Origin: a virus
DNA length: 64,000 nt
Strand: one strand, 5' to 3'
IMG/VR virus record: IMGVR_UViG_3300034105_002232
Part shown: positions 43,187 to 62,950 of the stretch, in pieces
Numbering within the stretch: position 1 is the stretch's first letter
Layout: each line of letters opens with the position of its first letter
Notes under the pieces: generated by a model
What the model was told of the DNA's origin: nothing
The model's input: the letters and a program-made list of their open reading frames with translations, nothing else
Database searches by the model: none
Translations under genes and position numbers: made by a program

Positions 43187-43260
43187 TGGCTCCGGTGGAG
43201 AGAATCGAACTCCCACCAGCGGTTTTGGAGACCGCTGCGCTGCCATTACGCCACACCGGA
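43187..43260 (-). tRNA. tRNA-Trp(CCA)
   Basis: Cloverleaf, CTCCAAA loop, G73, CCA end. Confidence 0.92.
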
Positions 43261-43274
43261 ATTTACTGTACTAA

Positions 43275-43514: not shown

Positions 43515-43536
43515 TCTGTTACTCCTTGATAAAAAA

Positions 43537-43713
43537 TTATTTTAGTTTACGCAAATACTCGATACCATACAGGCCTTTTTCAAATTCATTGAGTGCTGTT
43601 ACACAATCACGGTTGGCAGTACCCACAGTACTTTTGTGTCCGTTACGCAATTCGCGTACTCTGACACTGGCCATCAGTACTAAATTAAATCTATTTTCAA
43701 TTGGTTTATGCAT
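43537..43713 (-). CDS. rpoZ: RNA polymerase omega-subunit-like protein (58 aa), not in ORF track
   Basis: IENRFNLVLMASVRVRELRNG...VTALNEFEKGL matches the RpoZ pattern NRFxLVLxAxxRAR.L..G...ALxEIxxG. Confidence 0.72.
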   Translation of the reverse strand: MHKPIENRFNLVLMASVRVRELRNGHKSTVGTANRDCVTALNEFEKGLYGIEYLRKLK

Positions 43714-43763
43714 ATTTCTTTCATGTGTGTTTGCTTACTTAGCTAACGAACTTGTATTTAAGG

Positions 43764-44093
43764 TCAATGAAAACTTCCCTGAAAACAATGCCGCATTTCG
43801 TGTCCAATTTCATGCATGGTGCTGTGTTGTCCGGTTATCACAATGCATGAATTGCCTTCCCAAAACGAGCAAGCATCTACACCAAATCCAAACCCACCAA
43901 GCCCACGACGTCGACTTTCTGCTTCGCAAGCCTTTTGCACGTTATCGGCAACAACCCATTTTATTGTGCTGGTGTTGGTAAAATTCTTGTTGGTGTTAAA
44001 TCGTGCTTCGGGATCTTTCCACGATCCCGCAAAACTTGAAGTTGCAAAAATAGCAATTACAACAAAAGCAATAACGTTTTTCATAGTCAACAC
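43764..44093 (-). CDS. secreted protein with HExxH zinc-peptidase-like motif
   Basis: Signal peptide; HEIGHEMRHC. Confidence 0.6.
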   Translation of the reverse strand: MLTMKNVIAFVVIAIFATSSFAGSWKDPEARFNTNKNFTNTSTIKWVVADNVQKACEAESRRRGLGGFGFGVDACSFWEGNSCIVITGQHSTMHEIGHEMRHCFQGSFH

Positions 44094-44114
44094 CTTATTA
44101 ATTACTGTACAACT

Positions 44115-44143
44115 ATTATAGCAAAATGGGTATTTAAAGTCAA
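44115..44143 (-). promoter_or_regulatory. sigma70 promoter
   Basis: TTGACT-17-TATAAT with TG extension. Confidence 0.75.
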
Positions 44144-44427
44144 CCTGATTTTTCGTTGCTATCTTTGTAATACTTTTGCTGCTTGTGCTTGCGTTCCTGC
44201 ATGGTTTCTTGGCCCAGGGCTCGTCGCGGATTCATGCACATGTAACATCGGGGATCACCGCAGTTCAGTATTGCGGTTTTGTGGTTTCTATGTGGCTGTT
44301 CAATGTATTTCCACTTGGTGCCTTGATGCATGGCATAGGATTTGGCAATACCAACTTGGCGTTGTATCTTGGTTTCGTCGTTGAATCTACGACGACTGTT
44401 GCGAAACTTATCTTCCTCATGAGACAT
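44140..44427 (-). CDS. basic hypothetical protein with CGxxxCxMC motif
   Basis: Start refined to MSHEED (the longer ORF overlaps tRNA-Ser); AGGAG RBS. Confidence 0.7.
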   Translation of the reverse strand: MSHEEDKFRNSRRRFNDETKIQRQVGIAKSYAMHQGTKWKYIEQPHRNHKTAILNCGDPRCYMCMNPRRALGQETMQERKHKQQKYYKDSNEKSG

Positions 44428-44443
44428 AGCTTGCTCCTTAAAT

Positions 44444-44533
44444 TGGCGGAAGCGGTGAGATTCGAACTCACGGACCCATCTCTGAATCACTAGTTTTCAA
44501 GACTAGAGCAATCGTCCACTCTGCCACACTTCC
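44444..44533 (-). tRNA. tRNA-Ser(UGA)
   Basis: Long variable arm, CTTGAAA loop, G73, CCA. Confidence 0.92.
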
Positions 44534-44551
44534 TTGCATTACTATTTAACC

Positions 44552-44629
44552 TGGAGCAACGGGCGTGATTCGAACACGCGGTTTTAGGGATTTGCAGTCC
44601 CTTGCATTGGGCCGCTCTGCCACCGTTGC
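44552..44629 (-). tRNA. tRNA-Cys(GCA)
   Basis: CTGCAAA loop, U73, CCA. Confidence 0.92.
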
Positions 44630-44639
44630 ATAAACTTTT

Positions 44640-44714
44640 TGGTCCGGCTAGCAGGAATCGAACCCACATTAAAGGAGTAGAAATCCTCTGTATTATCCAT
44701 TATACTATAGCCAG
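44640..44714 (-). tRNA. tRNA-Arg(UCU)
   Basis: TTTCTAC loop, cloverleaf, CCA. Confidence 0.88.
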
Positions 44715-45052
44715 ACTAAACCTGCATGTACTTCGGCGTGACAATTAGCACACAATAAAGTACATTTATTAATTTCTTTTCTTAACTGCTCTATAGGAGC
44801 ACCTCTTTTACCACTAATACCAAATTCTTTTATTGATGGATCAATGTGGTGCCACTGTAATGCCGCAAAAGATTTATCATACTTGCATCTTTCGCACTTG
44901 CCGCCACGCTCAATAATTAACTGGTCTAATTTATCTCTAGCAACTTTATAGGTTCGTTTATTCCAGCATTTTTTGCATTGATAACGATACCCCTTTGCAT
45001 AGAAATGCGATGCTCCTTCGATGCCGCAATCTTTACAGACATACTCTTTCAT
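44705..45052 (-). CDS. HNH endonuclease (free-standing, homing-type) in the tRNA cluster
   Basis: CKDC..CKKC, GGKCERC..ALQWHH.DP...C.LLCANCHAEVH; start refined to MKEYVC. Confidence 0.85.
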   Translation of the reverse strand: MKEYVCKDCGIEGASHFYAKGYRYQCKKCWNKRTYKVARDKLDQLIIERGGKCERCKYDKSFAALQWHHIDPSIKEFGISGKRGAPIEQLRKEINKCTLLCANCHAEVHAGLVWL

Positions 45053-45062
45053 TTTGCTCTCC

Positions 45063-45087
45063 TGGTTAGAGTATTTATCTCTAACCA
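45063..45087 (-). promoter_or_regulatory. hairpin with late-promoter loop abutting the HNH RBS
   Basis: TGGTTAGAG-ATAAATA-CTCTAACCA followed directly by GGAG. Confidence 0.65.
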
Positions 45088-45094
45088 AAGATCA

Positions 45095-45171
45095 TGGTGG
45101 GCCGGGTGAGACTCGAACTCACTGTCACCCGATTATGAGTCGGACGCTTATACCAGTTAAGCTTCCGGCCC
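45095..45171 (-). tRNA. tRNA-CAU, probably Ile2 (lysidine type)
   Basis: GGGCC 5' end, CCGAC-TCATAA-TCGG arm, CCA. Confidence 0.85.
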
Positions 45172-45224
45172 ACGAGTGCCCGCTTGATTACTAGAACTTA
45201 ATCTAGACCGCGCTACACAAAACT

Positions 45225-45307
45225 TGGTACCCGGAGCCGGACTTGAACCGGCACGCCATGAGCGGGAGATTTTAAGTCTCCTGTGTCTACCATTCCACCA
45301 CCCGGGC
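45225..45307 (-). tRNA. tRNA-Leu(UAA)
   Basis: CTTAAAA loop, variable arm, CCA. Confidence 0.92.
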
Positions 45308-45322
45308 AAAACTTTTAAAACT

Positions 45323-45396
45323 TGGTGCCCCTTGACAGAATCGAACTGCCAATTGATGATTACAAATCAACTGTTATACCATTTAACTAAAAGGGC
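45323..45396 (-). tRNA. tRNA-Thr(UGU)
   Basis: TTTGTAA loop, CCA. Confidence 0.9.
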
Positions 45397-45402
45397 AAAT
45401 CT

Positions 45403-45490
45403 TGGCGGAGAGTATAGGAATCGAACCTATCCACCGGTTACCCAGTGACAGTTTAGCAAACTGTTGCCTTAACCGCTCGGCCAACTCTCC
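45403..45490 (-). tRNA. tRNA-Ser(GCU)
   Basis: TTGCTAA loop, long variable arm, G73, CCA. Confidence 0.92.
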
Positions 45491-45502
45491 TAACTTGTTA
45501 CT

Positions 45503-45531
45503 ATTATATAGTGTAGTACCTTTAATGTCAA
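45503..45531 (-). promoter_or_regulatory. consensus sigma70 promoter of the tRNA operon
   Basis: TTGACA-17-TATAAT. Confidence 0.8.
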
Positions 45532-46241
45532 GCAGTTTGTATATATGGATAGATTCTACGTAAGTCTTTACCAGCTAGACTCACTAGCTCATCTTTCTGA
45601 GTGCTTCTGTTAACGGCTAAACACGGGTGTATAACGGTTCCAGATTTTAGGGTCAATCCTTCTCCAAACACTTGACAGCTAAGACCCACATAAACATTAT
45701 CTTCTAATGTGTTATAAACGTGAATACCTGCTTGCCGTTGTATTATACAATTTTTTCCAATAATGTTATGATGTCCAATTGCTGCATATGAAAAAATACC
45801 AGTAAAATCTCCAATGGTGTTATATCCAGAAATATAAACAAAAGAATCAATCAAAACATTTTTTCCAATAGAAACTGTTTTATGTACACAGGCAGTAGGA
45901 TCAACCACTGATATACATTCTAAATTATACATTTCTATCAGGTCTATGAACTTTTTTTTCTTTTGTCTATCCCTGGCTTGAATTGGATTTTTTTCACTGG
46001 TCCAGTTTACTACTAAAAAAAAGTTAAAGTTTGATTTGTAAAATTCAAGTAAATTACTATCTTTAAAATTCTCTTCTGTATCAATGACACTAATACCTTC
46101 AATGTTGTTGGTATTACCGTAATAATCATTGTCTATCAGACCGTGTACCTTGATATCTAATTTTTCAAATAGATCTTTATAATACCACAAAGCTGCATTA
46201 GATCCTAAAAATATTACAGGTTTACTATTATCGTTAATCAT
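45528..46241 (-). CDS. NeuD/PglD-like hexapeptide-repeat O-acetyltransferase
   Basis: N-terminal Rossmann-like domain, VDPTA.V...IG, IGH...IG left-handed beta-helix. Confidence 0.8.
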   Translation of the reverse strand: MINDNSKPVIFLGSNAALWYYKDLFEKLDIKVHGLIDNDYYGNTNNIEGISVIDTEENFKDSNLLEFYKSNFNFFLVVNWTSEKNPIQARDRQKKKKFIDLIEMYNLECISVVDPTACVHKTVSIGKNVLIDSFVYISGYNTIGDFTGIFSYAAIGHHNIIGKNCIIQRQAGIHVYNTLEDNVYVGLSCQVFGEGLTLKSGTVIHPCLAVNRSTQKDELVSLAGKDLRRIYPYIQTA

Positions 46242-46816
46242 TGATTAATAAAATAAGGTTTAAAAAAATTAACAGTTTCTTGCCAAGACGAAAAGGTAGA
46301 TGATTGAAATCTAAGACTAAACGTCCATCTATGTTGATTGCTATTATTTAAAATTCTATGAGGAATTGCTGCATTAATTAATGTTGGTTTTAAAATTTGA
46401 CAACGTTCAATTTCAGTTACTTCGTTGTCATCCCATTGCTGATATTCCATGTTGCTAAAATTCTTTTTAGATTGCGTAATCATGTCATGATTATTGGGCT
46501 GGTACCAAATCATATATGAATCTAGCCCACTTAATACCCAATTAACACCAATTTGGTTAGTACCAGGTGGCCCATCACGATGTATAATGCTGTTCATGTT
46601 GGGTGGACCACAAAAAAGATGACAATTGTTAATTTTTAATTTATGTTCGGCCGCCCAGTGTTGTATATCTAGATGCACTACTTCCAAATTTTTATCTTCA
46701 ACATAATGCCAGAGATACCATTTTTGTTGGTCAAAATTTTCTTGCTCGAGCGCAGGAAAAACAAAATTGTCTTTTAACGGATTAGTAAAAAAGTTCAATT
46801 CATGATAATTTTTCAT
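46238..46816 (-). CDS. cupin / 2OG-Fe(II)-oxygenase-like protein
   Basis: IHRD...PHRI...R facial-triad-like motif. Confidence 0.5.
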   Translation of the reverse strand: MKNYHELNFFTNPLKDNFVFPALEQENFDQQKWYLWHYVEDKNLEVVHLDIQHWAAEHKLKINNCHLFCGPPNMNSIIHRDGPPGTNQIGVNWVLSGLDSYMIWYQPNNHDMITQSKKNFSNMEYQQWDDNEVTEIERCQILKPTLINAAIPHRILNNSNQHRWTFSLRFQSSTFSSWQETVNFFKPYFINQ

Positions 46817-47873
46817 CTTGTACTGTATATTTTTCATACTTTGCTTTTTCGTTAAAAATATGTTCTCTATCTTTGTCAACTAGCCTAGCAAAATCATCTA
46901 GACTATATAATAACCCATTGTGTCTAATCTGAGAAGCTCTAAATGTCTGTGGAGTATTAAAAATTTTATTTAGATAACAAATGGTTCTTGCCATGGTACG
47001 TTTATCGCCATCTTTGACATTGGTAGGTCTTTTATGCAACGTTATTTCTTGATCCATGAATACAATTTGGCCATCTTGCCAATTTTGAGTATGCACATAT
47101 TCTTCTTTGTACACAACTTTTTTTAATTCGTCCATTATACGATTACTTTCTGCAATAGACATACCAACGAATCCGTCAAAACTATGACTAGGAATCTTCA
47201 TACCCGATAACCCAGTTGCTGTTTCTCTATACAGCCGAGTCTCCATGCCATCAATAGGAACCATGTTATAATGTATAATCAATGTTTGTACAGGATTCAA
47301 TCCAGGGGCCATCACATGATCAACCCACTTGTGTTTTACAAACAATTCTTTAACTGTGCTGCGCATGTCTGAGCTCAATGATTCATATGCATCGTGTGTG
47401 CATAAAAACTGCGTTTGACTGTTTACAGTATCGCTTATGCTTTTGAGACCAATGATCCGTTGCCCATCATCAAATGCACACTGATCGCTGTGCCAATCCA
47501 ATTCTCCATTTTGGAAGATTCCGGATGGTCTACCCTTGGGGCCTTTTTTATAACTCACCATGCTTACTGCCTTATGCATGTCGTTTCCTGCTGAATTACT
47601 GACGTAACCCAAGTTTACAAGAATTTCTCTCCAATGGCGGCCTTCAATTTTCTTTTCAGTCACATACTCGTGAATTAACGCTCTACTTGGATCACCCCAT
47701 TCTAACATACTTTTATACAACATTTCTGTGGTAATATCTTGTTCAACAACTACTATACACTGTGATGCACACAATTTACCCAATTCTGTAATCTCGTCCG
47801 GCGACGCCCAATCAATATCGTATGCCTCGAGGCCAACACTGGCCCCATAATTTTTCAATGGTCTGGTTTTCAT
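46800..47873 (-). CDS. TauD/TfdA-family 2OG-dependent dioxygenase
   Basis: WHSD, TQF...AY..L, WQDGQIVFMD...LHKR. Confidence 0.85.
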   Translation of the reverse strand: MKTRPLKNYGASVGLEAYDIDWASPDEITELGKLCASQCIVVVEQDITTEMLYKSMLEWGDPSRALIHEYVTEKKIEGRHWREILVNLGYVSNSAGNDMHKAVSMVSYKKGPKGRPSGIFQNGELDWHSDQCAFDDGQRIIGLKSISDTVNSQTQFLCTHDAYESLSSDMRSTVKELFVKHKWVDHVMAPGLNPVQTLIIHYNMVPIDGMETRLYRETATGLSGMKIPSHSFDGFVGMSIAESNRIMDELKKVVYKEEYVHTQNWQDGQIVFMDQEITLHKRPTNVKDGDKRTMARTICYLNKIFNTPQTFRASQIRHNGLLYSLDDFARLVDKDREHIFNEKAKYEKYTVQDEKLS

Positions 47874-47897
47874 TTTTATCCTTTAGTAAATATATTG

Positions 47898-48005
47898 CTA
47901 GTAGAAGTTCTACTCACGGACGGCGTTCCGCATAATCTAATGCGGTAAAGAGGTAGCTCCCCAAGCGTCTAATAGACCGACGTCAACACTATGTTGGCGC
48001 TGCAC
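47898..48005 (-). ncRNA. candidate structured 5' leader / ncRNA
   Basis: Four hairpins in a GC-rich 110-nt gap directly after TATAAATA. Confidence 0.4.
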
Positions 48006-48040
48006 TACTATTTATATTAGCGTAACAGTCCTGTCAACCT

Positions 48041-48604
48041 TTACATTGTAGGACCGTTACCGTTTTTAAATCCTACTTCACCACCTTCTGCAACGATACG
48101 CTTGATCACATCTTCAAACAGCACGGGTGCAAAGTCAGTTTGTTCTACGCAGACGCAATGGTATCTAGTATCAACCGCACCATCTTTCATTACTCTGTTA
48201 CTGTGCAGATGTCCATGTATATTAGTACCAAAACGGCCTAGGCTGTCCGAGTGAATAGGAATATGACTCAGTATCATTCCGTTCATCACGTGGTAGGCAC
48301 GTAATTCTCTAAAGTATTCGCGGTACTCGTCGTCACGGAAGATATCGTGATTACCACGTATCAGCACCTTGTCCCCGTTTAGGCGAGCCAATGTACTCAA
48401 TGCTCTACGATTGATCACAACATCACCCAGGTGATAAACTTTATCGTTGGGCCCAACACGCTCGTTCCAGGCCTTGACCATAAACTCATCCATTTCTTCT
48501 GGATCGTCCCAAGGACGCAGTTTGGTCACACCATCGTTGCGTAGGAATCTACATACGCCAGCATGACCAAAATGCGTGTCACTTACTAAAAATACTGCTG
48601 GCAT
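48041..48604 (-). CDS. calcineurin-like phosphoesterase
   Basis: SDTHFGH, HLGD, GNHD, HGHLH. Confidence 0.88.
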   Translation of the reverse strand: MPAVFLVSDTHFGHAGVCRFLRNDGVTKLRPWDDPEEMDEFMVKAWNERVGPNDKVYHLGDVVINRRALSTLARLNGDKVLIRGNHDIFRDDEYREYFRELRAYHVMNGMILSHIPIHSDSLGRFGTNIHGHLHSNRVMKDGAVDTRYHCVCVEQTDFAPVLFEDVIKRIVAEGGEVGFKNGNGPTM

Positions 48605-48620
48605 ATTCAACTCCTTTCTA

Positions 48621-48857
48621 TTATCCAAATATTGCTTTTATTACACGATAGTTTTTATCAGTGCCACGAACTTCTACCCGAGTCTTGTCAATTTCAGCTA
48701 GTTCTTGTGCTACCCCTTTAGCCCAGGGCAAAGGTAATTCTACTCGTTCATTGTCATGATCGGGATAGCGTAGCGGCATCCACTGTGCATACCCACCAAA
48801 TCCCTCAGCATTAGTTTCTGTTTGGGGATTGGCAAGCCAAATTTCATATAATGCCAT
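48621..48857 (-). CDS. hypothetical protein
   Basis: ORF with RBS. Confidence 0.6.
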   Translation of the reverse strand: MALYEIWLANPQTETNAEGFGGYAQWMPLRYPDHDNERVELPLPWAKGVAQELAEIDKTRVEVRGTDKNYRVIKAIFG

Positions 48858-48870
48858 AATACTTTCCTTT

Positions 48871-49176
48871 CTATGCTGTTATCCAACGTTCTTGTTCTTT
48901 TAAATATATTGATTCATTACCATCGTATTCATCTACACGAAACACAGTTCCCTCTGGTAACCATAGTATGGACAAATCTTTGAGCCCGCCTACGTAGGCA
49001 TCGGGATACTTCAGTGTTACGTAACTTAGAATTTTATCCGTTTCTTCGGCTTCTAGCCACGCCACAATGCTTGGATCAAAAAGCAATTCTTCAATCTGGT
49101 GACAACTATACCATCCGACACCATACTCGGGGCTATAAAGCACTGCCACTTGTCCGTCACGAATTACACGTTCCAT
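48871..49176 (-). CDS. hypothetical phage protein (VAVLYSP.YG.GW...EYDG.E)
   Basis: ORF with AGGAGG RBS. Confidence 0.75.
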   Translation of the reverse strand: MERVIRDGQVAVLYSPEYGVGWYSCHQIEELLFDPSIVAWLEAEETDKILSYVTLKYPDAYVGGLKDLSILWLPEGTVFRVDEYDGNESIYLKEQERWITA

Positions 49177-49199
49177 TATGCCCTCCTTTCTAAATATTT

Positions 49200-49291
49200 T
49201 GGTACCAGCGGAGGGAATCGAACCCTCTCAAGAACGCTAATCTGGCGCTAAAAGGTTTATAAAACCTCTCTGACTACCAAGTCTCGCTGGC
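49200..49291 (-). tRNA. non-canonical tRNA with UAU anticodon, minimal D-arm and long variable arm
   Basis: GCCAGCG/CGCTGGT-A-CCA; GACT-TGGT-AGTC; TTTATAA loop; GAGGG-TTCGATT-CCCTC. Confidence 0.75.
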
Positions 49292-49300
49292 AATTGTTTT

Positions 49301-49374
49301 TGGAGCGGGGTAGGAGAATCGAACTCCTCGCTTTAGCTTGGAAGGCTAAGGTATTACCACTATACGAACCCCGC
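49301..49374 (-). tRNA. tRNA-Gly(UCC)
   Basis: CTTCCAA loop, U73, CCA. Confidence 0.92.
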
Positions 49375-49383
49375 TTTAAAACT

Positions 49384-49458
49384 TGGTACACCGTAGGAGA
49401 ATCGAACTCCTCTTACCTGCGTGAAAGGGATGTGTCCTAACCAATAGACGAACGGTGC
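49384..49458 (-). tRNA. tRNA-Glu(UUC), anticodon stem with two mismatches
   Basis: CATCC-CTTTCAC-GCAGG. Confidence 0.75.
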
Positions 49459-49462
49459 ATAA

Positions 49463-49546
49463 ACCATATTGAAGCACACTTTAGATAAGCCCTATGCGTC
49501 CGACACGAATGCCACGCATCCAAGGCAAAATGTGTTTCAATATGGT
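49463..49546 (-). ncRNA. long hairpin RNA in the Leu-Glu tRNA spacer
   Basis: ACCATATTGAAACACA/TGTGCTTCAATATGGT outer stem, ATGCGT/ACGCAT, GGCA-TTCG-TGTC tip. Confidence 0.55.
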
Positions 49547-49626
49547 GCCTGGGGCGAGACTCGAACTCGCACGTCTCTCGACACTGGCTTCTAAGACCAG
49601 CATGGCTACCATTACATCACCCAGGC
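49543..49626 (-). tRNA. tRNA-Leu(UAG)
   Basis: CTTAGAA loop, variable arm, CCA. Confidence 0.92.
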
Positions 49627-49999: not shown

Positions 50000-50000
50000 C

Positions 50001-50726
50001 CTAAATTTCACGCAAAAAAGTTAACTCTTTTATAATCTTTTCATTAAATCCTGAGGTTAAATCTAAAGCAACATTGGTGGTTATGGTATCAACAACTTTT
50101 TTTGCTAATATTGCATGATTACTACGACGCAAATGGTTAGGTCTTGGGTCAGGCCATCTCTGCTCGTCAAATTGAGTAGCTAGTTCCGTTGTTGCAAATT
50201 CAGCAGCTGATACACTGTCAAGTGATCCGTCAGACATAATTAAATTTGTGTACCTGGCACAATCAATCACAGTGTCCGATACTGCATTAATAATTACGAT
50301 TTTTATTTTTAATTCTGCAGCCAGACTATCAACACTATGTAAAAAATTTACAACATGCAGTTTCATTTTAGTTGTGTGTATATCTGAAAAATTTGTTTGA
50401 TAATATTTTATTGCCAACATCTCGTCTCTAGATATTTTTTTTCTTGACTCGGGCGGTACATAGTTTATTAACTCTGCCGAGGATAACACAGGAAAATCTT
50501 TAAAGAAATATCCTCTTCCTTCGTGGGTCAAACAAACTATAACTAAGTCATGTTTGGTTATATATTTTCTGCATTGTTCAAACTGTTCAAAAGTGTATTC
50601 AAGCCCGGACCCGCCACGACCAAAGTTTCTCTGGTCGTGTCCTAGCGTAGCAGCCACCAAATATGTCCATGACCAATCAACATTATTTGAATTATCTGCA
50701 AAACTGTCGCCAAATATGTAAAGCAT
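50001..50726 (-). CDS. SGNH/GDSL-like hydrolase-fold protein
   Basis: IFGDSF, N.G.GG, NH....H..LA. Confidence 0.65.
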   Translation of the reverse strand: MLYIFGDSFADNSNNVDWSWTYLVAATLGHDQRNFGRGGSGLEYTFEQFEQCRKYITKHDLVIVCLTHEGRGYFFKDFPVLSSAELINYVPPESRKKISRDEMLAIKYYQTNFSDIHTTKMKLHVVNFLHSVDSLAAELKIKIVIINAVSDTVIDCARYTNLIMSDGSLDSVSAAEFATTELATQFDEQRWPDPRPNHLRRSNHAILAKKVVDTITTNVALDLTSGFNEKIIKELTFLREI

Positions 50727-50749
50727 TATATAATTGTTCCTTGCGTAAT

Positions 50750-51493
50750 TTAGTTGTACCTGACTAACAAATGCGAGCAGGTCTCTGTGCTATTAGTTGT
50801 ACTCTGTTGTTTTTCTGTCAGAGAAAACAGCGCTCTTGAGCGACTATTAAAATCCTTAACAGTATCCTCTAGGTAATAAACTGCTAGACTCTTTCTATAT
50901 ACTCCATTGGGCTGAGTTAACGGCCTGCTCAAGCCATGCCATGAATTTTGCGTAGTATCAAAAATTACTGCTCGATTAAACACAGGTGCAATCTCTTTTA
51001 CTAATTCTTCGGGCTGTGTGGACCCACGCCACAACCCTAAATGCCCACCGTGGTGTTCCTTAAGATCTTGCGAAACATATATTACAATATTTAATTTTCT
51101 CTGTTTATGCAACTTTGGGTGCATGGCGTAGTCCAGATGCGCATTTAGCACACCACCAACTCCGTGTATATGGCACCCACCACTGTGCAGCCCAGGATCA
51201 CTATACAGCTGGGTGCCAACTAACTTAGATAACTTGTTCACAAAATCAGGTGAGTTTAAGTAATCAAACAGCTGGTAGGTGTTTTCTTGAAACAAATACC
51301 AATCGTTGTTTTGTTTTTTTACTTGTACTTCATTGTTATAAGTTAACCAATGACTTGAATGATAGTCTAAAAATTCACTTTCAATTACAGCCGCCAGGTT
51401 GTTGGGTAAAAAGCCATCAATAACACAATGATCAAACGGTGCTTGATTTTTATAATGATCAAATGCTTGTGTAAAGTTATCTAGATTAATCAC
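50750..51493 (-). CDS. 2OG-Fe(II) oxygenase (prolyl-hydroxylase-like)
   Basis: PFDH..IDGFL, HLDY, FNRAVIF...SWHG...RKSLA. Confidence 0.88.
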   Translation of the reverse strand: MINLDNFTQAFDHYKNQAPFDHCVIDGFLPNNLAAVIESEFLDYHSSHWLTYNNEVQVKKQNNDWYLFQENTYQLFDYLNSPDFVNKLSKLVGTQLYSDPGLHSGGCHIHGVGGVLNAHLDYAMHPKLHKQRKLNIVIYVSQDLKEHHGGHLGLWRGSTQPEELVKEIAPVFNRAVIFDTTQNSWHGLSRPLTQPNGVYRKSLAVYYLEDTVKDFNSRSRALFSLTEKQQSTTNSTETCSHLLVRYN

Positions 51494-52089
51494 TATTTGA
51501 TAGAACTCCTGTTAACAATAACTTGATCTGCTAGCCCGTAAGCCACTGCTTCTCCGGCACTCATAAAGTTGTCGCGCTCCATGTCTGCATACAGATCTGC
51601 ATACTGCTTGTCTGCACTGTTGTGAGCGACGTAAATTTCAGTTAATGACTTCTTCATGGCCAAAATCTCATTCACTTGGATCAACATGTCTGTGGCCTGC
51701 CCCCTTGCACCGCCACTTGGTTGGTGGATCATGTGTCTGGCATTAGGCAGTATAAATCGCTTGCCCCGAGCACCGGCTTGTGCCAACAACGATCCCATGC
51801 TGCAGGCCTGCCCCATCACAATGGTGTTCACATCAGGTGCCACAAACTGCATGGCATCGTAAATGGCCATTCCAGCAGTTACACTTCCTCCGGGACTGTT
51901 GATCCAAAGATTGATGTCTTTGTCGGGGTTTTCACTTTCCAGAAACAACAACTGTGCCACAATCAGATTGGCCATTTGGTCGTGTACTTCGCCTTCCAGC
52001 AGAATGATACGCTCTCGGAGCAGTCGGCTGTAAATATCATAACTGCGTTCACCTTTGCTGGTGCTTTCGATTACCATTGGAACTAGCAT
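51493..52089 (-). CDS. clpP: ATP-dependent Clp protease proteolytic subunit
   Basis: [19 protein letters not shown] (Ser), MIHQP (His), ATD (Asp). Confidence 0.95.
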
Positions 52090-52327
52090 ACATCTCCTTG
52101 AAAAATACATTATACTACTTAATTGAAATCATTGCAATGGTAGTAGAAATGAAACTTGAACTTGTGATGAATTGGCCACTCTACCAATCAGACCGATCAG
52201 TATTGTTCAATTGAAATAACATTGCATCATCAATAATATTCAACTCAAAACCTTGTCGAAGATCAATTTTTGTTTATAATCGTTAATAAACGTAAATCTA
52301 ACTTCAGTTCATGATGGTAATTTAATA

Positions 52328-52876
52328 CTAATCAACTGCAAATTTTTTACTCAATTCCTCGAATGAAGGGTTACCTTTAAATCTGATAGTAGCTAAAACT
52401 AAATTAGAATCAGTTGAAAAAACACCGTGTGGTATATCTGTTCTGACTACTATAGGAGTAAACACATCAACTTGATAGCAAATACTGTGTTCCGAGTTCC
52501 ATTTTATTTCAAGATATGTCACATCTTTGTCTGTAGCTAGTGTTACTTTGGTCAAGTCAAAATTACCATGTTCCCAATATACAGAATACCCATTTTTGCA
52601 CACCCACGGTAATACCAAAGATCCGTGACACGGACTGTCACTGCTGACAAAGTAATCCACGTGAGAATCTATAGGGGTAGATGGGGGATAGCCAAATACT
52701 AGCACATGTTCTATTAATAGATCGTATTTTTCTAGTTCTTTGTTTATTTCTTTTCTTAAATTATCAATTGGTAGTAATTTTACTGCAGTATTGATTATTT
52801 TATTGTCTATCATTCTTTGCAGTTGATAGGTTACTTGTTCGCTTAACGGATTGTGCGCAATAGATGAGTATTTCAT
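52328..52876 (-). CDS. cupin/oxygenase-like hypothetical (distantly similar to 46238..46816)
   Basis: HVD...P.VVRTDIPH.V...TIRF. Confidence 0.5.
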   Translation of the reverse strand: MKYSSIAHNPLSEQVTYQLQRMIDNKIINTAVKLLPIDNLRKEINKELEKYDLLIEHVLVFGYPPSTPIDSHVDYFVSSDSPCHGSLVLPWVCKNGYSVYWEHGNFDLTKVTLATDKDVTYLEIKWNSEHSICYQVDVFTPIVVRTDIPHGVFSTDSNLVLATIRFKGNPSFEELSKKFAVD

Positions 52877-52929
52877 ATTAGTATTTAAGCACATATTTGT
52901 TAATCCGTTAAAATTAAATAAGTACAGTT

Positions 52930-54030
52930 ATGACAAACTACTGCCCTGAACTTTTCCAAACAATGTATGTGCAAAAACTCAATGAAAACGAAGTTAAGCT
53001 AGGTCATTGCTGTAACTCAGCAAGATCTGATCCAGTCTCAACAGTTGACATGCATCATGAATTCTTAAAGAAAGGAAGAGTGTTCTACTTAGAACACAAC
53101 AAGTTACCACCTGCCTGCAATATCTGCGTTGATTTAGAAAATAAAGGAATTTATACTCTTAGGCTACTTAGTTTAGAAAAAATTACACAAGAAGTAACAG
53201 TACCAAAACTTGAACTGTTGTTTTATAATTGTGATCCTATATGCAATCTAAAATGTATCATGTGCAACAGCGAATGGAGTTCGGCCTGGATCGATGACGA
53301 AATAAAACTTGGTATTCGATCAGATTTAAAAATAAATCGCACAAAAAATAACAATCTGTATCATGACATGGATCTTTCAAATTTGACTGCAATTCATTTT
53401 AATGGCGGCGAACCATTTATGACTCGGGATCATTTAAATTTATTAGCATTTGTCTGTCAAACCAGATCATCAAAAGACATAAGCGTAACCTACAACACCA
53501 ACGCCACGTGGCCAATTACTCAAGAGATAATTGACATGTGGGCCAAGTTTGGTGGAGTTACTGTGTTTTGCAGCATTGATGGTACCCATGAAGTATTTGA
53601 CTATGTTAGATACGGAGATTCTTGGCAAAATGTAGAGGCAAATATTAAAAGCTATCAGAATATAAAACTAGAACATTTTCAAATTGAAATACATGCTGCA
53701 ATAGGATTACATAATATTTTATACATTGATGAACTGTATTCGTGGGCTGATCAAAATAATCTTGAGTTGAAATTAGGATGTGTAACACATCCTTTAGAAA
53801 TTAAAAATTTTCCTTTTGCAGCAAAACAACAATTGATCAGTTACCTACATAGTCTGCCTAGTACAACAAACACACAAATAATTCTTAACGCTGCCAATGC
53901 CATAGACGAAAATTCAGATATTGGTTGGCTTTACTGGATTAAAAATCTTGACCGTATCAGAGGCAACAACTGGAAGCAGAGTCTGCATAAGTTGTACGAG
54001 CTGGATCCAGAATATTTTGATTCTATTTGA
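52930..54030 (+). CDS. radical SAM protein with N-terminal twitch-like domain
   Basis: CNLKCIMC, GGEPF, N-terminal CP..CC..CNIC. Confidence 0.88.
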   Translation: MTNYCPELFQTMYVQKLNENEVKLGHCCNSARSDPVSTVDMHHEFLKKGRVFYLEHNKLPPACNICVDLENKGIYTLRLLSLEKITQEVTVPKLELLFYNCDPICNLKCIMCNSEWSSAWIDDEIKLGIRSDLKINRTKNNNLYHDMDLSNLTAIHFNGGEPFMTRDHLNLLAFVCQTRSSKDISVTYNTNATWPITQEIIDMWAKFGGVTVFCSIDGTHEVFDYVRYGDSWQNVEANIKSYQNIKLEHFQIEIHAAIGLHNILYIDELYSWADQNNLELKLGCVTHPLEIKNFPFAAKQQLISYLHSLPSTTNTQIILNAANAIDENSDIGWLYWIKNLDRIRGNNWKQSLHKLYELDPEYFDSI

Positions 54031-54040
54031 AGCTCAAATC

Positions 54041-54124
54041 TGGTAGTAGACCAGGGATGAGGACCTCATCCTGCACCGGTCTCCGGGAATTATAAGGCCC
54101 CGCCGCATACCAATGCTGTCTACC
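54041..54124 (-). ncRNA. tRNA-like RNA (UAU loop, minimal D-arm, aberrant T-arm, encoded CCA)
   Basis: GGTAGAC/GTCTACT-A-CCA; GCAT-TGGT-ATGC; CTTATAA loop; T-arm replaced by a CAGGATGAG-GTC-CTCATCCCTG hairpin. Confidence 0.6.
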
Positions 54125-54154
54125 AATTTTGTAACACCTGCTGAAACTAGAGAC

Positions 54155-54179
54155 AAAAAGAAAGCCCTACAAGAGGGCT
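54155..54179 (-). terminator. intrinsic terminator after pqqA
   Basis: AGCCCT/AGGGCT stem followed by TTCTTTTT. Confidence 0.7.
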
Positions 54180-54199
54180 AACTTTTAGTTCTTTGTATA

Positions 54200-54274
54200 T
54201 TAGCGATTAGCAATGTACATTGTAATTTCAAAACCAAAACGTAAATCAATTGCTGCTGGTGTGGTCCATGCCAT
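54200..54274 (-). CDS. pqqA: pyrroloquinoline quinone precursor peptide PqqA ([24 protein letters not shown]), not in ORF track
   Basis: W..P...DLRFGFE-xxx-Y-xxNR signature; AGGAGA RBS 6 nt upstream; own terminator. Confidence 0.93.
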
Positions 54275-54398
54275 TTTAAATCTCCTTGTAAGTTTACATA
54301 CTGCATTAGTATGTATGATTATAATACACTAAAATACCGTATAATAACATCCTGGCGATCATGATTTTGCACTACGTCAATTCATTAGACAGCGCGAA

Positions 54399-55037
54399 CT
54401 ATTTCTGCATTAATTTGTCAACAAATTCAAGCAGCAGGTGATGCTGACCACCTGTCCATTTGTTTTGCATCCAGGAATAGCTGTTGTACCAGTGGCGATC
54501 TGCTTCGGGATGGCATCCAATCAAGCCTACACGATCTTGCATGACAGCCATTGGTGCTCCGTTGGGGTAACTGGCCACTGTGTCGTACTGGCCATCACCC
54601 ATATAGGTGCAACCATCGTAAAAGTACATGTGGGTTGGGTGGTTGTTCCAGGTCACTGGCATATGTTTGGCATGCGGTCTATGCGTGTCTGTGCCAGGGC
54701 TTCGAATGTACTGTATTGCTCTAACACGGTCAAGCAAGCCAAAGTAATTGGTATCGGCCCAATATGCCCCCATGCAAATGCCAAGATACCTACCACCGTT
54801 GGCTACAAAATTACGTATACGTTGCCCATTAACTTGCATCAATTGATCAAATGAATCTGAGTCACCAAAGCCGCCGGGGACGCAGACCAGATCTACGTCA
54901 TCAAAGAAATCGTTTTCTAATTCATGTCGGGTAAAAATTTTAAAATCGTAGTGTGCGCTCAAGGCTCGGATTATGCCATTGCCGCTTTGCACTGAACATT
55001 TGGGTTGATGCAAGAACAGTGCTATCTTGGGTTTCAT
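54399..55037 (-). CDS. GATase-like protein (BPL_N family)
   Basis: VPGG, GGRYLGICMGAY, GCHPE. Confidence 0.8.
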   Translation of the reverse strand: MKPKIALFLHQPKCSVQSGNGIIRALSAHYDFKIFTRHELENDFFDDVDLVCVPGGFGDSDSFDQLMQVNGQRIRNFVANGGRYLGICMGAYWADTNYFGLLDRVRAIQYIRSPGTDTHRPHAKHMPVTWNNHPTHMYFYDGCTYMGDGQYDTVASYPNGAPMAVMQDRVGLIGCHPEADRHWYNSYSWMQNKWTGGQHHLLLEFVDKLMQK

Positions 55038-55052
55038 TTATGTACTTATGTC

Positions 55053-55076
55053 AAAACAAAGCCCCTAAGGGCTTTT
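55053..55076 (-). terminator. intrinsic terminator after the plcP-GT unit
   Basis: AAAGCCC/GGGCTTT stem plus GTTTT. Confidence 0.7.
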
Positions 55077-55132
55077 GTATGGTAACTGGTTACGAGTTCC
55101 AGCGGTGCTCTATCGTTGCACCCGATTTAAAC

Positions 55133-55843
55133 CTAATTCCAGTATTTGGTATGATCCAATCTATCCCAATATTGTTTATTATTGCGATTAACAAAGTTTC
55201 TAATTAGATACGTTGCCATTCCAAAATAACCCATTTTTTTAAATCTTCTTGAGTCTTGTCCAAAATAGTGATCAACAATTCTAAATTTTTTTGTACTGTA
55301 CATTCTTGAAAGAAAGAAATCCTCAGAGGTTACATAGCGTTCAGAAAACCCACTATATTCCTCAAATTTAGTCTTACTAGTTAGCATAAATGCACCAACA
55401 GCAAATGGGACAAAATATTTAAATACTCCGTTCACAAAGTTAAAAATCATGAAACTTATATTGGCTCTGTGATCGTTGTCGTAACAATAAATTTTTGCCG
55501 TAATTAAATCTAAATTGTAAAACTCAATTTCATCTACAGTATCTTGAATTACTGTGTCTCTAAAAAATTGAACATCAGAATCGATGAACAAAATGTAAGG
55601 TGTCGTGGCCAACCGTGCACCGTTGTTCCTGGCTACAGAAACTGTGCCACCATTGATTATTTCTACATTTAAAAAAGCACTGTTGGCTTGTATAACCTGT
55701 CTTGTGTTATCGGTAGAACTATCAGCAATAATGATTCTAGTATCTCCAAGTTTTTGCAATCTCAGTGAGTCTAATAAATGATGAATATACGTTTCTTCAT
55801 TGCGACAAGGTACTACAATTGTAATTTTATCACTTAGTTTCAT
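55133..55843 (-). CDS. family 2 glycosyltransferase
   Basis: IVVPCRNEE, IIAD.STD.T, ARNNGA, FIDSD, SED. Confidence 0.9.
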   Translation of the reverse strand: MKLSDKITIVVPCRNEETYIHHLLDSLRLQKLGDTRIIIADSSTDNTRQVIQANSAFLNVEIINGGTVSVARNNGARLATTPYILFIDSDVQFFRDTVIQDTVDEIEFYNLDLITAKIYCYDNDHRANISFMIFNFVNGVFKYFVPFAVGAFMLTSKTKFEEYSGFSERYVTSEDFFLSRMYSTKKFRIVDHYFGQDSRRFKKMGYFGMATYLIRNFVNRNNKQYWDRLDHTKYWN

Positions 55844-56009
55844 TTTTAATACATTTTCCTTCTATTCGAAAAGAATCAAATTTTATCCAATATGTCATTG
55901 ATTGCAAACTAGTCTCGCAACTGAGTTGATCCGGAAATTCCAACATCACTCTGCCCGGAATGTCCTTTGGATCTTTTAGGTGCACCACTATCAATATCAT
56001 CAACCACAT
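55830..56009 (-). CDS. small secreted/membrane protein with two Cys
   Basis: Start refined to MWLMIL; overlaps the 3' end of the phosphoesterase gene. Confidence 0.5.
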   Translation of the reverse strand: MWLMILIVVHLKDPKDIPGRVMLEFPDQLSCETSLQSMTYWIKFDSFRIEGKCIKNETK

Positions 56010-56760
56010 TGTCTGTCTCCTGTGTCCAAGTAATAATTTCCCAACGGCCATCATGATGTTCCACTAGTGCAGTCATGCTTTCCACCCAATCGCCATCATT
56101 CATGTATATGATGCCATCTATTTCTTTTATTTCTGCATGATGAATATGACCACATATCACTCCATCAAAGCCACGCTTGCTGCAATAGCCAGCAAGATTA
56201 TGCTCAAACTGAAAAATAAAGTCCACGGCTTTTTTGACCTTATGCTTGAGATAAAAAGATAAACTCCAATAACCAAAGCCCATCCTACGACGAAGCCAAT
56301 TAAAACGGCTGTTAACACTGAGAATAACATCATATGCCTTGTCTCCCAAAAAACCCAACCAAGGAGCCAGTCTGGTAATGCCATCAAACAAGTCGCCGTG
56401 TGTGACCAAGTAATGCTTACCGTCCACTCCAATGTGTTCGGATTGATTTGCTATTTCTATTAGACCAAATCCTGGATCATATTGCATAAAGGGTCTGAGA
56501 AATTCATCATGATTGCCTGCCACATACACTACTCGGGTACCACGTTTGGCATGCCCCAGTACTCGACGAACTACATTGGTATGACTTTGTTTCCAACGCC
56601 ATTTGTTTTGTTTAATCTTCCATGCATCAATTATATCACCTACAAGATACAGTGTTTCGCATGAGTTATTTTTAAGGAAATTGTTAAGTGCTTCGGCCTT
56701 GCAATCTTTGGTCCCTAAATGAACATCTGAAATAAAGATAGTGCGATGTGTCTTGTTCAT
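55909..56760 (-). CDS. LpxH-like metallophosphoesterase, PlcP-type phospholipase C candidate
   Basis: RTIFISDVHLG, LYLVGDIID.W, GNHD, HGD.FD, DGVICGHIHHA, NDGDWVES.TALVE. Confidence 0.8.
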   Translation of the reverse strand: MNKTHRTIFISDVHLGTKDCKAEALNNFLKNNSCETLYLVGDIIDAWKIKQNKWRWKQSHTNVVRRVLGHAKRGTRVVYVAGNHDEFLRPFMQYDPGFGLIEIANQSEHIGVDGKHYLVTHGDLFDGITRLAPWLGFLGDKAYDVILSVNSRFNWLRRRMGFGYWSLSFYLKHKVKKAVDFIFQFEHNLAGYCSKRGFDGVICGHIHHAEIKEIDGIIYMNDGDWVESMTALVEHHDGRWEIITWTQETDNVVDDIDSGAPKRSKGHSGQSDVGISGSTQLRD

Positions 56761-56782
56761 AATAATATTTAAGGTCTTTAAG

Positions 56783-56800
56783 ATTACAAACCCATTACAA
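56783..56800 (-). promoter_or_regulatory. Pho box upstream of the plcP-like gene
   Basis: TTGTAAT-GGGT-TTGTAAT direct repeat with 11-bp period. Confidence 0.65.
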
Positions 56801-56804
56801 AGTC

Positions 56805-56834
56805 AAATAAAAAGCCCTTCCGGGCTTTTTATTT
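56805..56834. terminator. bidirectional intrinsic terminator after the porin
   Basis: AAATAAAAAGCCC-TTCC-GGGCTTTTTATTT. Confidence 0.8.
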
Positions 56835-56840
56835 TTGGTA

Positions 56841-58244
56841 CTAGAAACTTATTTGACTTCTTAGCATGACTGCTTTTTCACCAGTTACTCTACTGCCTGA
56901 CGCACCCACTGGGGCATTGAATTTGGTGTCTACATAATTGACCATGAATCGAACATTGTCATTCAAAAACCAAGTAATACCGTATGTGATCGCTGTGGCT
57001 TGATTGGCTTTGCCTGCTACTACGGCAATAGTTTCAGCATCGAACTCACTAGATCTAATACCTACCTGCCATGCTCCAGGACCACCACTGGTAAATGCAT
57101 TGTTTGGTTTGATCCAACCAAATGTGCCATCTTTGTAAGCATGACTTTCTCCGGTTAAATTGTATACCAACTGAACATAGTTACCTTTCACTTCTTGATT
57201 GGATCCTGTGGCTGGGTCGTATTTGTAATTAAACTGCTCGCCCTGTACTTTCAGGCCTTTCCAAGCAAACGCTGCCTCAATGCCTTGGCGTGTTCTTGCA
57301 GTGTCGCCGCTTAGAGCTGACCCTGTGAACCAGGCACTTTGTTGACGAGCTTCAGTACGACCACTGGAAGGAGTTACTCCAGTCTTTACATCACCAGTAC
57401 TGTACGCTGCACCCAAATGAGCCACAAAGTCTTTGTTCTGAATCAACTCAGCAAAGTTTGTGGTCACACGTCCAATAATATCTACACCATCTACAGTGGT
57501 AGTCTTGTTGGCACGACCACGACTTGCAGCCAGTGCATAAGTTATACCTGCTCTAGGCACACCGTGTAACATGATGCCTGTTTCTTTAGCTGGAATAAAC
57601 TCACCTTCAGTTTGTCCAATTAGGCTACGCTCCATGAAGTCAATGTTGTTGGAGCTGGTCAATTGCTCTAGACTGAACGGCATCTTGAAAGTACCAAACT
57701 GAAGTTGCATTACCGGATTGGCAGCATAATTGACCCAGAACTCATCTATTGTGGATGTGGTAGAACTGGCACCAACATCATTTCCAAAGTTTGCTAGCAA
57801 CTGATATTTGAAGTCTTTGGCAATCTGTCCTCTAACTCCAAAGCGACCACGTCTAACTTCTAATGCATCTTGATATGGGTCTGTGGTTTGACCTGCACCG
57901 TACACTGGACTATAACTTCTATAATCCATGTGAATTCTACCTGTGAATTGTGCAGTGGTATTTCCGTCTTTGGATTTGATTCCTAGTCCGTTTTCCATTA
58001 CAGCACCATCACTGGCTTTACTTAGTCTGTAGTTGTTGTTGTCTCGCAGGTCTTTGTCCACACGAGAAGAATTAAACTGTGCATTTTCTACTTTGTCTTT
58101 GTGTGCTTCCACTTTGGTAGCATGCTCTTCCTTGGTTAATATTCCTTTTTGCAAAAGAATATCCAAGGTGTCTGTGTAATCATCTGCCATTGCAGGTGAC
58201 GCAAAGCATAGTGCTAAGAGTGATATAATAGTAATTTTTTTCAT
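56841..58244 (-). CDS. phosphate-selective porin (OprO/OprP family)
   Basis: Signal peptide, GRIHMDY, RRGRFGV.G, G.FKMPFSLE.LTSS..IDFMERS, C-terminal F. Confidence 0.88.
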   Translation of the reverse strand: MKKITIISLLALCFASPAMADDYTDTLDILLQKGILTKEEHATKVEAHKDKVENAQFNSSRVDKDLRDNNNYRLSKASDGAVMENGLGIKSKDGNTTAQFTGRIHMDYRSYSPVYGAGQTTDPYQDALEVRRGRFGVRGQIAKDFKYQLLANFGNDVGASSTTSTIDEFWVNYAANPVMQLQFGTFKMPFSLEQLTSSNNIDFMERSLIGQTEGEFIPAKETGIMLHGVPRAGITYALAASRGRANKTTTVDGVDIIGRVTTNFAELIQNKDFVAHLGAAYSTGDVKTGVTPSSGRTEARQQSAWFTGSALSGDTARTRQGIEAAFAWKGLKVQGEQFNYKYDPATGSNQEVKGNYVQLVYNLTGESHAYKDGTFGWIKPNNAFTSGGPGAWQVGIRSSEFDAETIAVVAGKANQATAITYGITWFLNDNVRFMVNYVDTKFNAPVGASGSRVTGEKAVMLRSQISF

Positions 58245-58252
58245 AATATTCC

Positions 58253-59278
58253 TTATTTCCAGATTGCTTGACCGCTAGGGTCTTTAAGTTCTTTTTTCCA
58301 GTTGTCCTGCACCAGTTTAATCACTGAAGCTGGCATGTGTACGTACTCTAATTCCTCACTCATCTTGGAACCGTTTTTGTAGCTCCAGTCAAAGAATTTT
58401 AGTATTGCGCGGCCTGTTAGTAGATCGGCTTGTTGCTTGTGCATTATGATAAAGCTGGCACCTGTTGCTGGCCATGAATCTTTACCAATTTGATTTGTCA
58501 ACAACAAATACATGCCTGGAGCATTGTCCCAATCTGCATTGGCAGCTGCCGCTTTAAATGCTTCGTCGCTTGGCTGAACAAAGTTTCCATCACGATTCTT
58601 CAATTGAGCGTGAGCAATCTTGTTCTTTTTAGCATAGGCGTATTCCACATAACCAAATGCACCTTTGATTCTTTGTACCTGCGCTGCAACACCTTCGTTG
58701 CCCTTGCCGCCAATACCCACAGGCCACTTGACTGCTGTAGCAGCACCAATCACTTTACCAAATTCTGCATTAGTTTTGCTTAGATAATCACACCAGATGA
58801 ATGTTGTACCTGATCCATCAGCACGATGTACAACTGTGATTGGTAGTGCGGGTAAAGTAACGCCAGGATTCAAGCTGGTAATGGCCTGATCGTTCCATTT
58901 AGTAATTTTACCCAAATGGATATTGGCAATCACATCACTGGTAAGTTTCAATTGCCCTGGAGCAATACCGTCTAGATTTACTACTGGAACTACACCACCA
59001 ATAATAGCTGGGAATTGCATTAGACCTTCTTTTTCTAGGTCTTCTGGTTTCAATGGCATATCACTTGCGCCAAAGTCCACTGTCTTGGCTTTGATCTGTT
59101 TGATACCACCACCTGAACCGATGGATTGATAGTTGAGTCCGATGCCGGTTGCTGCTTTATACGCTTCTGCCCACTTTGAATAGATAGGATAAGGAAATGT
59201 TGCTCCTGCTCCTGTTAAGTCTGCTGCTGCTACTTGACCTGTTAATGCAATCAGTAACATTGCTAATAGTTTTTTCAT
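58253..59278 (-). CDS. pstS: phosphate ABC transporter substrate-binding protein
   Basis: GAGATFPYP, NYQSIGSGGG, DFGASD, RADGSGTT, KGNEGV, GYVEY. Confidence 0.96.
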   Translation of the reverse strand: MKKLLAMLLIALTGQVAAADLTGAGATFPYPIYSKWAEAYKAATGIGLNYQSIGSGGGIKQIKAKTVDFGASDMPLKPEDLEKEGLMQFPAIIGGVVPVVNLDGIAPGQLKLTSDVIANIHLGKITKWNDQAITSLNPGVTLPALPITVVHRADGSGTTFIWCDYLSKTNAEFGKVIGAATAVKWPVGIGGKGNEGVAAQVQRIKGAFGYVEYAYAKKNKIAHAQLKNRDGNFVQPSDEAFKAAAANADWDNAPGMYLLLTNQIGKDSWPATGASFIIMHKQQADLLTGRAILKFFDWSYKNGSKMSEELEYVHMPASVIKLVQDNWKKELKDPSGQAIWK

Positions 59279-62339: not shown

Positions 62340-62368
62340 ATTATAGCAAATGATGAATTTATTGTCAA
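62340..62368 (-). promoter_or_regulatory. consensus sigma70 promoter
   Basis: TTGACA-17-TATAAT. Confidence 0.8.
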
Positions 62369-62369
62369 T

Positions 62370-62396
62370 AAAAATAGCACCCTAGGGTGCTATTTT
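62370..62396 (-). terminator. terminator of the tmRNA gene
   Basis: AAAATAGCACCCTAGGGTGCTATTTT palindrome. Confidence 0.8.
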
Positions 62397-62399
62397 AGC

Positions 62400-62776
62400 T
62401 ATTTGTTAACAAGGCGCCGCCCCCGGGTCTAGAGTTTCTTAGGCTGCTAGTAAAACTGCTGAGTCATTTGCAGCAACACGGCCAAAAAAGGCAGCTTTGC
62501 TTACAGTAACTTTTACAGTACCATTTGTATTTGCGTTTGCATTTACGAGTTTTGCTTGATTTACAGTCATCGCCTACTGTGCTGTCCATATCCTTACTTG
62601 ATGCCCAATCGAAACCTGGTCGCCCCCATCAGAAGTACTCTTGATCTCCAGTTTACCGGTGGGGATCAATCCACTTTCAACCTTCTCCGATCCGGCGTCC
62701 CGTTTAGAATACTTTTGGTGGAGGCGAGGGGAATCGAACCCCTGTCTTGAACACCTTTCATTCTACTTCATACAAC
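62400..62776 (-). ncRNA. ssrA: circularly permuted (two-piece) tmRNA
   Basis: Acceptor piece ...GACAGGGGTTCGATTCCCCTCGCCTCCACCA (CCA at 62716-62718) precedes the coding piece GGGGGCGACCAGGTTTCGA (G1 at 62627); G3-U70 pair; tag ORF 62439-62540 ends in LAA. Confidence 0.9.
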
Positions 62777-62782
62777 AATTCT

Positions 62783-62950
62783 TTACTTTACTTCTCTAAG
62801 TTCACATCTGGCTTTGATGGCGTTTTCTCTGTGATGCATGATTGCTCGCACAATTTCCTCACATTCAGTCCGGCGTGTATAACTGCGCCAATCTCGCTCA
62901 ACTCCATCGGCAACGACCAAAACCACCAAGACCCAAACCCAAATATCCAT
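62783..62950 (-). CDS. small protein with hydrophobic N-terminus and two Cys (55 aa), not in ORF track
   Basis: MDIWVWVLVVLVVADG...CEE...ARCELR; manual translation. Confidence 0.5.
   Translation of the reverse strand: MDIWVWVLVVLVVADGVERDWRSYTRRTECEEIVRAIMHHRENAIKARCELREVK

Follow-up and report, generated by a model that had tools for sequence, protein, structure and literature searches.

An orphan pqqA gene in a large T4-like freshwater phage

The window, which is the whole 64,000-nucleotide stretch of DNA that was analysed (IMG/VR record IMGVR_UViG_3300034105_002232), belongs to a large T4-like freshwater phage and holds on its minus strand a coding sequence of 24 codons plus stop (54200..54274) that a first-pass annotation had proposed to encode the PQQ precursor peptide PqqA. 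The ORF reads as claimed, and a search with the family profiles placed it above both curated cut-offs: the Pfam model PF08042 was matched over its whole length (positions 1-19 of 19) with 39.9 bits against a cut-off of 21.1 (E 4e-10), and the NCBIfam equivalog TIGR02107 with 39.3 bits against a cut-off of 20 (positions 1-21 of 21). Because 64 kb holds only ~2,000 short ORFs, this match lies far beyond chance; no second PqqA-like ORF was found in the 64-kb window. The peptide has 24 residues, within the family range of ~20-40, and carries the leader motif W-x-x-P, while its RFGFEITMY segment contains the E-x3-Y pair, Glu16 and Tyr20, the residues from which PQQ gets built. At the level of sequence, these matches confirm the ORF as a genuine PqqA, and the gene is very probably functional. 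PqqA ORFs are so short that most gene callers exclude them by length.

Phage genes flank pqqA on both sides. The window encodes a T4-type clamp loader, baseplate-wedge and fibre-like proteins and an ATP-dependent DNA ligase as phage markers, along with an endonuclease V-like protein, ClpP, a large ATP-dependent protease and pstS, the last being a classic phage auxiliary gene. Directly upstream of pqqA and on the same minus strand lies a phosphate-starvation island (55133-59278) composed of pstS (58253-59278), an OprO/P-type phosphate porin (56841-58244) which the protein atlas placed no lower than phylum, an LpxH/PlcP-like metallophosphoesterase (55909-56760) and a GT2 glycosyltransferase (55133-55843). 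The run continues on this strand with a GATase-like protein of 212 residues (54399-55037), which has a BPL_N/class-I glutamine amidotransferase-like N-terminus (PF09825, E 2.6e-11), found no PHROG match and is conserved in seven related viral loci at 56-73% identity; pqqA ends the run. From the other side, a radical SAM gene on the plus strand (52930-54030) converges on pqqA, and the terminator region is common to both.

A compact cassette with its own expression signals

Read from its sequence, pqqA is a self-contained cassette of ~250 bp made up of a palindromic box, a -10 element, a leader hairpin, a Shine-Dalgarno sequence, the 24 codons and a terminator, all on the minus strand. The AGGAGA ribosome-binding site claimed for the gene was recovered as AAGGAGA (54281..54287), 7 nt ahead of the ATG, and an SD-like motif is present in all 120 distinct viral pqqA contexts among the matches listed. 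Upstream of it, an inverted repeat (ACATAC ... GTATGT, 54295..54315) folds as a leader hairpin at -7.2 kcal/mol (z -2.2) and is retained in alignments of viral relatives, with loci L025 and L269 carrying a stem of different sequence at the equivalent site. Since covariation is weak (a double change in one of seven pairs, most copies having the same sequence), the repeat could equally well be an RNA hairpin or a protein operator; Rfam recognised no known RNA family in 53950-54450.

A TATAAT box at 54318..54323 was read from the sequence as a -10 element, and a TAtAAT-like box occupies the equivalent site in relatives; no convincing -35 element was seen upstream of pqqA, and a consensus scan called no full sigma-70 promoter there. 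Some 30-45 nt upstream of the -10 box, alignments identified a palindromic box with the core AATCATGAT (54352..54368) that travels with pqqA. It is also present in L107, L268, L061 and L269 and stands ahead of pqqA even in relatives with a different upstream gene, and we regard it as a candidate regulator-binding site. About 125 nt 5' of the ATG are homologous among the relatives of the window, with the upstream gene varying.

The claim that the gene has its own terminator was borne out by an intrinsic terminator (54153..54179) with a 6-bp G+C-rich stem, a 5-nt loop and a T run, which folds at -14.9 kcal/mol (z -3.7); the terminator-like hairpin proper lies at 54179-54163, followed by the T run. 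Across 120 viral contexts, the 50 nt 3' of the pqqA stop fold much better than shuffles (median z -3.0). The Shine-Dalgarno sequence, -10 box, terminator and conserved leader speak for pqqA as its own transcription unit, as had been proposed, and this description appears well supported, with one qualification: the scan called no strong terminator separating the upstream gene from pqqA, and read-through from upstream may still contribute.

Residence in phage genomes, spread and selection

A megablast search with 50000-58300 returned no match among GenBank phages, and an exact 41-mer of the gene had no match in IMG/VR; the syntenic relatives of the locus come from IMG/VR. The pqqA-bearing locus L107 shares the PlcP/LpxH-like esterase (80% identity), the GATase-like protein (56%) and the ligase (56%) with the window; GT2 is followed directly by pqqA in L025 and L256; L269, L331 and L346 carry pstS and the porin, with pqqA 122-128 nt behind the latter; and a homologue of the window phosphoesterase encoded at 48041-48628 occurs in L010, L053, L038 and L061 at 76-79%. 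The window pqqA has a GC content of 0.37, in line with the local phage DNA (0.37-0.41), and a GC3 of 0.24; the bacterial copies closest to it have GC3 values of 0.50-0.77. A host-phage chimera, which the first-pass annotation had named as a danger to its reading, is thus excluded, as is a recent scrap of host DNA, because the synteny recurs in independent viral contigs and the codon composition is phage-like.

A tblastn search of 50,697 GenBank phage records with the window peptide matched 12 records, namely nine cultured Methylophilales phages, one uncultured podovirus and two that are bacterial. The cultured carriers are four Melnitz myoviruses, the siphoviruses P19250A, Venkman and MEP301, and the podoviruses MEP401 and MEP402. 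Each true phage among the 10 records has a complete pqqA ORF with a ribosome site, and the gene is unannotated in every GenBank phage record that carries it. An IMG/VR scan with a degenerate DNA pattern for the PqqA core yielded at least 120 contigs, all listed matches being complete PqqA ORFs; a second scan, with a pattern for the tail type of the window peptide, likewise yielded at least 120 contigs (111 of them new among the matches listed), with a complete ORF and full leader in all but four of those listed. Together the two scans identified at least 231 distinct pqqA contigs. Viral copies of pqqA are widespread and usually unannotated.

Among 116 distinct viral pqqA sequences, pN/pS was 0.19 (pS 0.60, pN 0.11), and the leader Trp and Pro, which the search left unconstrained, were invariant; the core positions, including the Glu/Tyr pair, were fixed by the search pattern, so that their invariance is uninformative. 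The gene therefore appears to be kept by selection across phages of several unrelated morphotypes, and two marks of a viral auxiliary gene, residence in a phage and maintenance by selection, were found.

Biosynthetic enzymes and the adjacent radical SAM gene

The absence of pqqBCDE from the window, as stated in the first-pass annotation, held up in tblastn searches with PqqB, C, D and E, whose best hit in the window had an E-value of 0.18; no PQQ dehydrogenase gene is encoded in the 64 kb either. Among the matches listed, the flanks of the 231 pqqA-bearing IMG/VR loci contained no pqqB-E, and pqqC, pqqE and PQQ alcohol dehydrogenase were absent from four large relatives (61-356 kb, the 356-kb one being 96% complete) and from the complete Melnitz genome. 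The phage gene thus stands apart from the pqqBCDE genes with which pqqA typically forms an operon, which is not disqualifying, because the nearest bacterial copies are unlinked and those of Methylophilaceae are dispersed (PMC4109929).

The convergent gene at 52930-54030 encodes a radical SAM protein of the N-terminal twitch-domain type (N_Twi_rSAM, NF033640; 182 bits, cut-off 170). Its assignment as PqqE (TIGR02109) was rejected, PqqE being outside its 25 best families; tblastn with PqqE gave an E-value of 1.8 or worse across the window, and no PqqD-like domain was found in the product. A functional link between the two neighbours was rejected as well, since the protein is not PqqE and, among the matches listed, a radical SAM homologue lies near pqqA in one of 231 viral loci (L275).

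Peptide type and probable host

The 13-residue tail of the window peptide occurs in at least 120 bacterial genomes, and those among the matches listed are nearly all betaproteobacteria, chiefly Burkholderiales with a few Rhodocyclales, as assigned by record title, a few titles being uninformative or evidently wrong. The closest bacterial peptides among the matches listed are identical at 23 of 24 residues and are encoded by MAGs of freshwater Oxalobacteraceae and Burkholderiaceae; their NCBI name is PqqA of 'Burkholderiaceae bacterium'. As judged from this tail distribution and from the nearest MAG peptides, the host is a betaproteobacterium, in agreement with the betaproteobacterial form that had been read from the peptide.

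In the MAGs with the 23/24 match, pqqA does not adjoin pqqB-E. When four MAGs of the nearest lineage were tested, pqqC and pqqE lay on a separate contig in all four, and three of them encode 3-4 PQQ alcohol dehydrogenases above cut-off, which indicates that pqqA stands alone there and that PQQ is in use. Four near-identical pqqA copies were found in the 401 genomes of the order searched. The exact window peptide has only one other occurrence, on a short metagenome contig, and it and nine frequent variants from related viral contigs were absent from named bacteria. The commonest viral peptides, with the tail EVTMYVMNK, are identical to PqqA of Ca. Methylopumilus, Methylotenera and Methylophilus, as would be expected for a substrate that needs recognition by host PqqD and PqqE.

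A probable supply of precursor to the host pathway

PqqA is the sole component of PQQ synthesis that gets consumed, and T4-like phages turn off host transcription. On this background, the reading that we consider probable is that the phage pqqA is an auxiliary gene feeding the stoichiometric precursor to host PqqB-E. The infected cell would translate the phage peptide, host PqqD would bind its leader, and host PqqE would cross-link Glu16 with Tyr20; host proteases would then trim the cross-linked peptide, and PqqB and PqqC of the host would complete PQQ, one PqqA peptide being destroyed per PQQ produced. Because one peptide is spent per PQQ and the phage brings no enzymes, its pqqA would top up the only consumable of the pathway. 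The top-up would take effect as host transcription fails, so that periplasmic PQQ-dependent dehydrogenases of the methanol/ethanol type might stay loaded and the energy supply persist during replication. We infer translation, processing by host enzymes and benefit to the phage, and we assume that the window peptide is compatible with host PqqD and PqqE.

Known bacterial systems fit such a role. Methylophilaceae carry 3-12 dispersed pqqA copies against a single pqqBCDE set (PMC4109929), and in an industrial PQQ producer that has five pqqA genes, one orphan ranks among the most highly expressed, its expression and the rate of PQQ synthesis peaking together (PMC9851590). Taken together, the copy number and the highly expressed orphan suggest that precursor dosage matters. 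PQQ is a reusable cofactor, and the gain within one latent period is therefore not obvious unless new apo-enzyme is made too.

Other roles for the peptide fit the same locus less well. It might serve as a decoy or regulator, titrating host PqqD/PqqE or signalling without raising PQQ, and the phage-specific variants in the window and its nearest viral relatives, uncatalogued in named bacteria, would be in keeping with this; however, the consumed Glu and Tyr and the conserved leader residues are intact, and the commonest viral peptides, being the same as host PqqA, look like substrates and not inhibitors, which makes such a role very unlikely. It is also highly improbable that the peptide is the substrate of the phage radical SAM protein and yields a product other than PQQ. 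The convergence of the two genes on a common terminator region and the fact that PqqE is likewise a radical SAM enzyme invite the idea, but the protein scores as N_Twi_rSAM with no PqqE among its best 25 families, has no PqqD-like domain, recurs near pqqA only in L275 of the 231 listed loci and is one of several radical SAM genes, the others lying in other contexts of the same phage. That pqqA arose by chimeric assembly, was captured recently as a scrap of host DNA or is a functionless attachment-site remnant, as its tiny size and host origin might suggest, is extremely improbable: the flanking genes are phage genes and the same cassette stands among the same phage genes elsewhere, its GC3 of 0.24 resembles that of the phage and not the 0.50-0.77 of the nearest bacteria, its coding frame is under purifying selection, and strictly lytic T4-like phages such as Melnitz carry pqqA (PMC9004378).

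A further alternative keeps the biochemistry of precursor supply and changes its payoff, making pqqA part of a phosphate-starvation programme of the phage, which we regard as unlikely. The acid products of the dehydrogenases or the proton-motive force would mobilise or import phosphate beside PstS, the porin and the PlcP-GT2 pair. In its favour, pqqA closes the pstS-porin-PlcP-GT2-GATase run in the window, follows the porin at 122-128 nt in the three loci named above and adjoins GT2 in L256 and, on the opposite strand, in L321; a phosphate-gene homologue lies near pqqA in 14 of 120 viral loci with the same peptide type, against three of 120 in the general set (matches listed), and pqq genes have been classed in the literature as phosphate-solubilisation genes (PMC13188868). 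Against it, auxiliary genes of T4-like phages form islands anyway, so that adjacency may mean little and this clustering could explain the phosphate neighbourhood equally well; moreover, pqqA adjoins unrelated genes or tRNAs in other relatives, no Pho-box-like repeat was seen in its leader, and it is implausible that plankton dissolve mineral phosphate with acid. A broader proposal, also rather unlikely though slightly less so, would treat pqqA in this clade of very large freshwater phages as a mobile, self-regulated ~250-bp cassette with a phage-specific PqqA that was repeatedly inserted directly behind pstS-porin or PlcP-GT2, such that PQQ supply belongs to a phosphorus-stress programme. If true, PQQ supply would be a controlled component of the phosphorus-stress response, beyond propping up methanol oxidation.

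Relation to known systems

Phage-borne pqqA has precedents. PqqA and methanol dehydrogenase were described on Lake Baikal methylotroph viruses (Coutinho et al. 2020, Microbiome 8:163; PMC7678222), and a 2026 survey includes virus-encoded pqqA among phosphorus genes (PMC13188868), so that the high novelty implied by the first-pass annotation is not justified; the paper on Melnitz leaves pqqA unmentioned. As the basic idea is already published, the value added here lies in breadth and in the anatomy of the cassette, and no new principle is involved.

Like the Baikal viral PqqA, the gene described here is a stand-alone gene of a freshwater phage and is read as auxiliary support for PQQ-dependent dehydrogenases. 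The Baikal virus has methanol dehydrogenase, whereas the window and its large relatives do not; the window peptide is of the general Burkholderiales type (EITMYIANR) and not of the Methylophilaceae type; and, unlike the Baikal gene, it lies within a phosphate-starvation island. With the cultured Methylophilales phages the window has in common an orphan pqqA (23-24 codons in this group) that has its own ribosome site, mostly a hairpin after it, and no pqqB-E, but the peptides of those phages carry the tail EVTMYVMNK or one very like it, and the window peptide is 59-68% identical to them. Stand-alone chromosomal pqqA genes of betaproteobacteria are of the same family and size and are similarly unlinked from pqqBCDE; unlike bacterial pqqA, the window copy belongs to a phage genome, resembles phage genes in its codon use and carries a leader conserved among phages. 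What sets the window apart is its peptide of Burkholderiales type, the very large size of the phage, the conservation of the cassette and the phosphate island beside it.

The window thereby widens a pattern seen in phages of methanol-eating Methylophilaceae, adding a large phage whose PqqA is of the Burkholderiales type, and it ties pqqA physically to phosphate-starvation genes. A 72-base gene alone would show how little DNA may suffice to prop up a host pathway. Because pqqA falls below the cut-offs of gene callers and is missing from GenBank records, surveys of viral auxiliary genes undercount it.

Additional observations

In two phage records, a hypothetical ORF on the opposite strand is annotated in place of pqqA, at 6001-6072 of L001 (Melnitz) and at 2122-2187 of L006 (Manatee Spring virus). 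The records named 'Acinetobacter phage MD-2021a' (CAKLQF020000010.1, L007, and CAKLQH020000055.1) were rejected as carriers, being bacterial contigs with fur, ppk and pqqABCDE, and they yield false phage matches for pqq genes.

Among the 120 listed betaproteobacterial loci with the tail (L128-L247), 24 have no pqqB-E within the locus, including all the closest matches, and Methyloversatilis sp. XJ19-49 accounts for three entries. Stand-alone or multiple pqqA copies are therefore not confined to Methylophilaceae.

Elsewhere on the minus strand, the window carries 13 clustered tRNA genes, one of them for an odd tRNA-Ile(UAU), and a permuted tmRNA (42848-49626 and 62348-62809), for which a tag of 33 residues is predicted. 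ClpP (51493-52110), assigned by profile (PF00574, E 1e-77), and a 759-residue ATP-dependent protease/AAA+ protein (3865-6144; phrog_4871, E 9e-239) are also on this strand. The combination of ClpP, AAA+ protease and tmRNA suggests that the phage may exert control over the degradation of tagged proteins.
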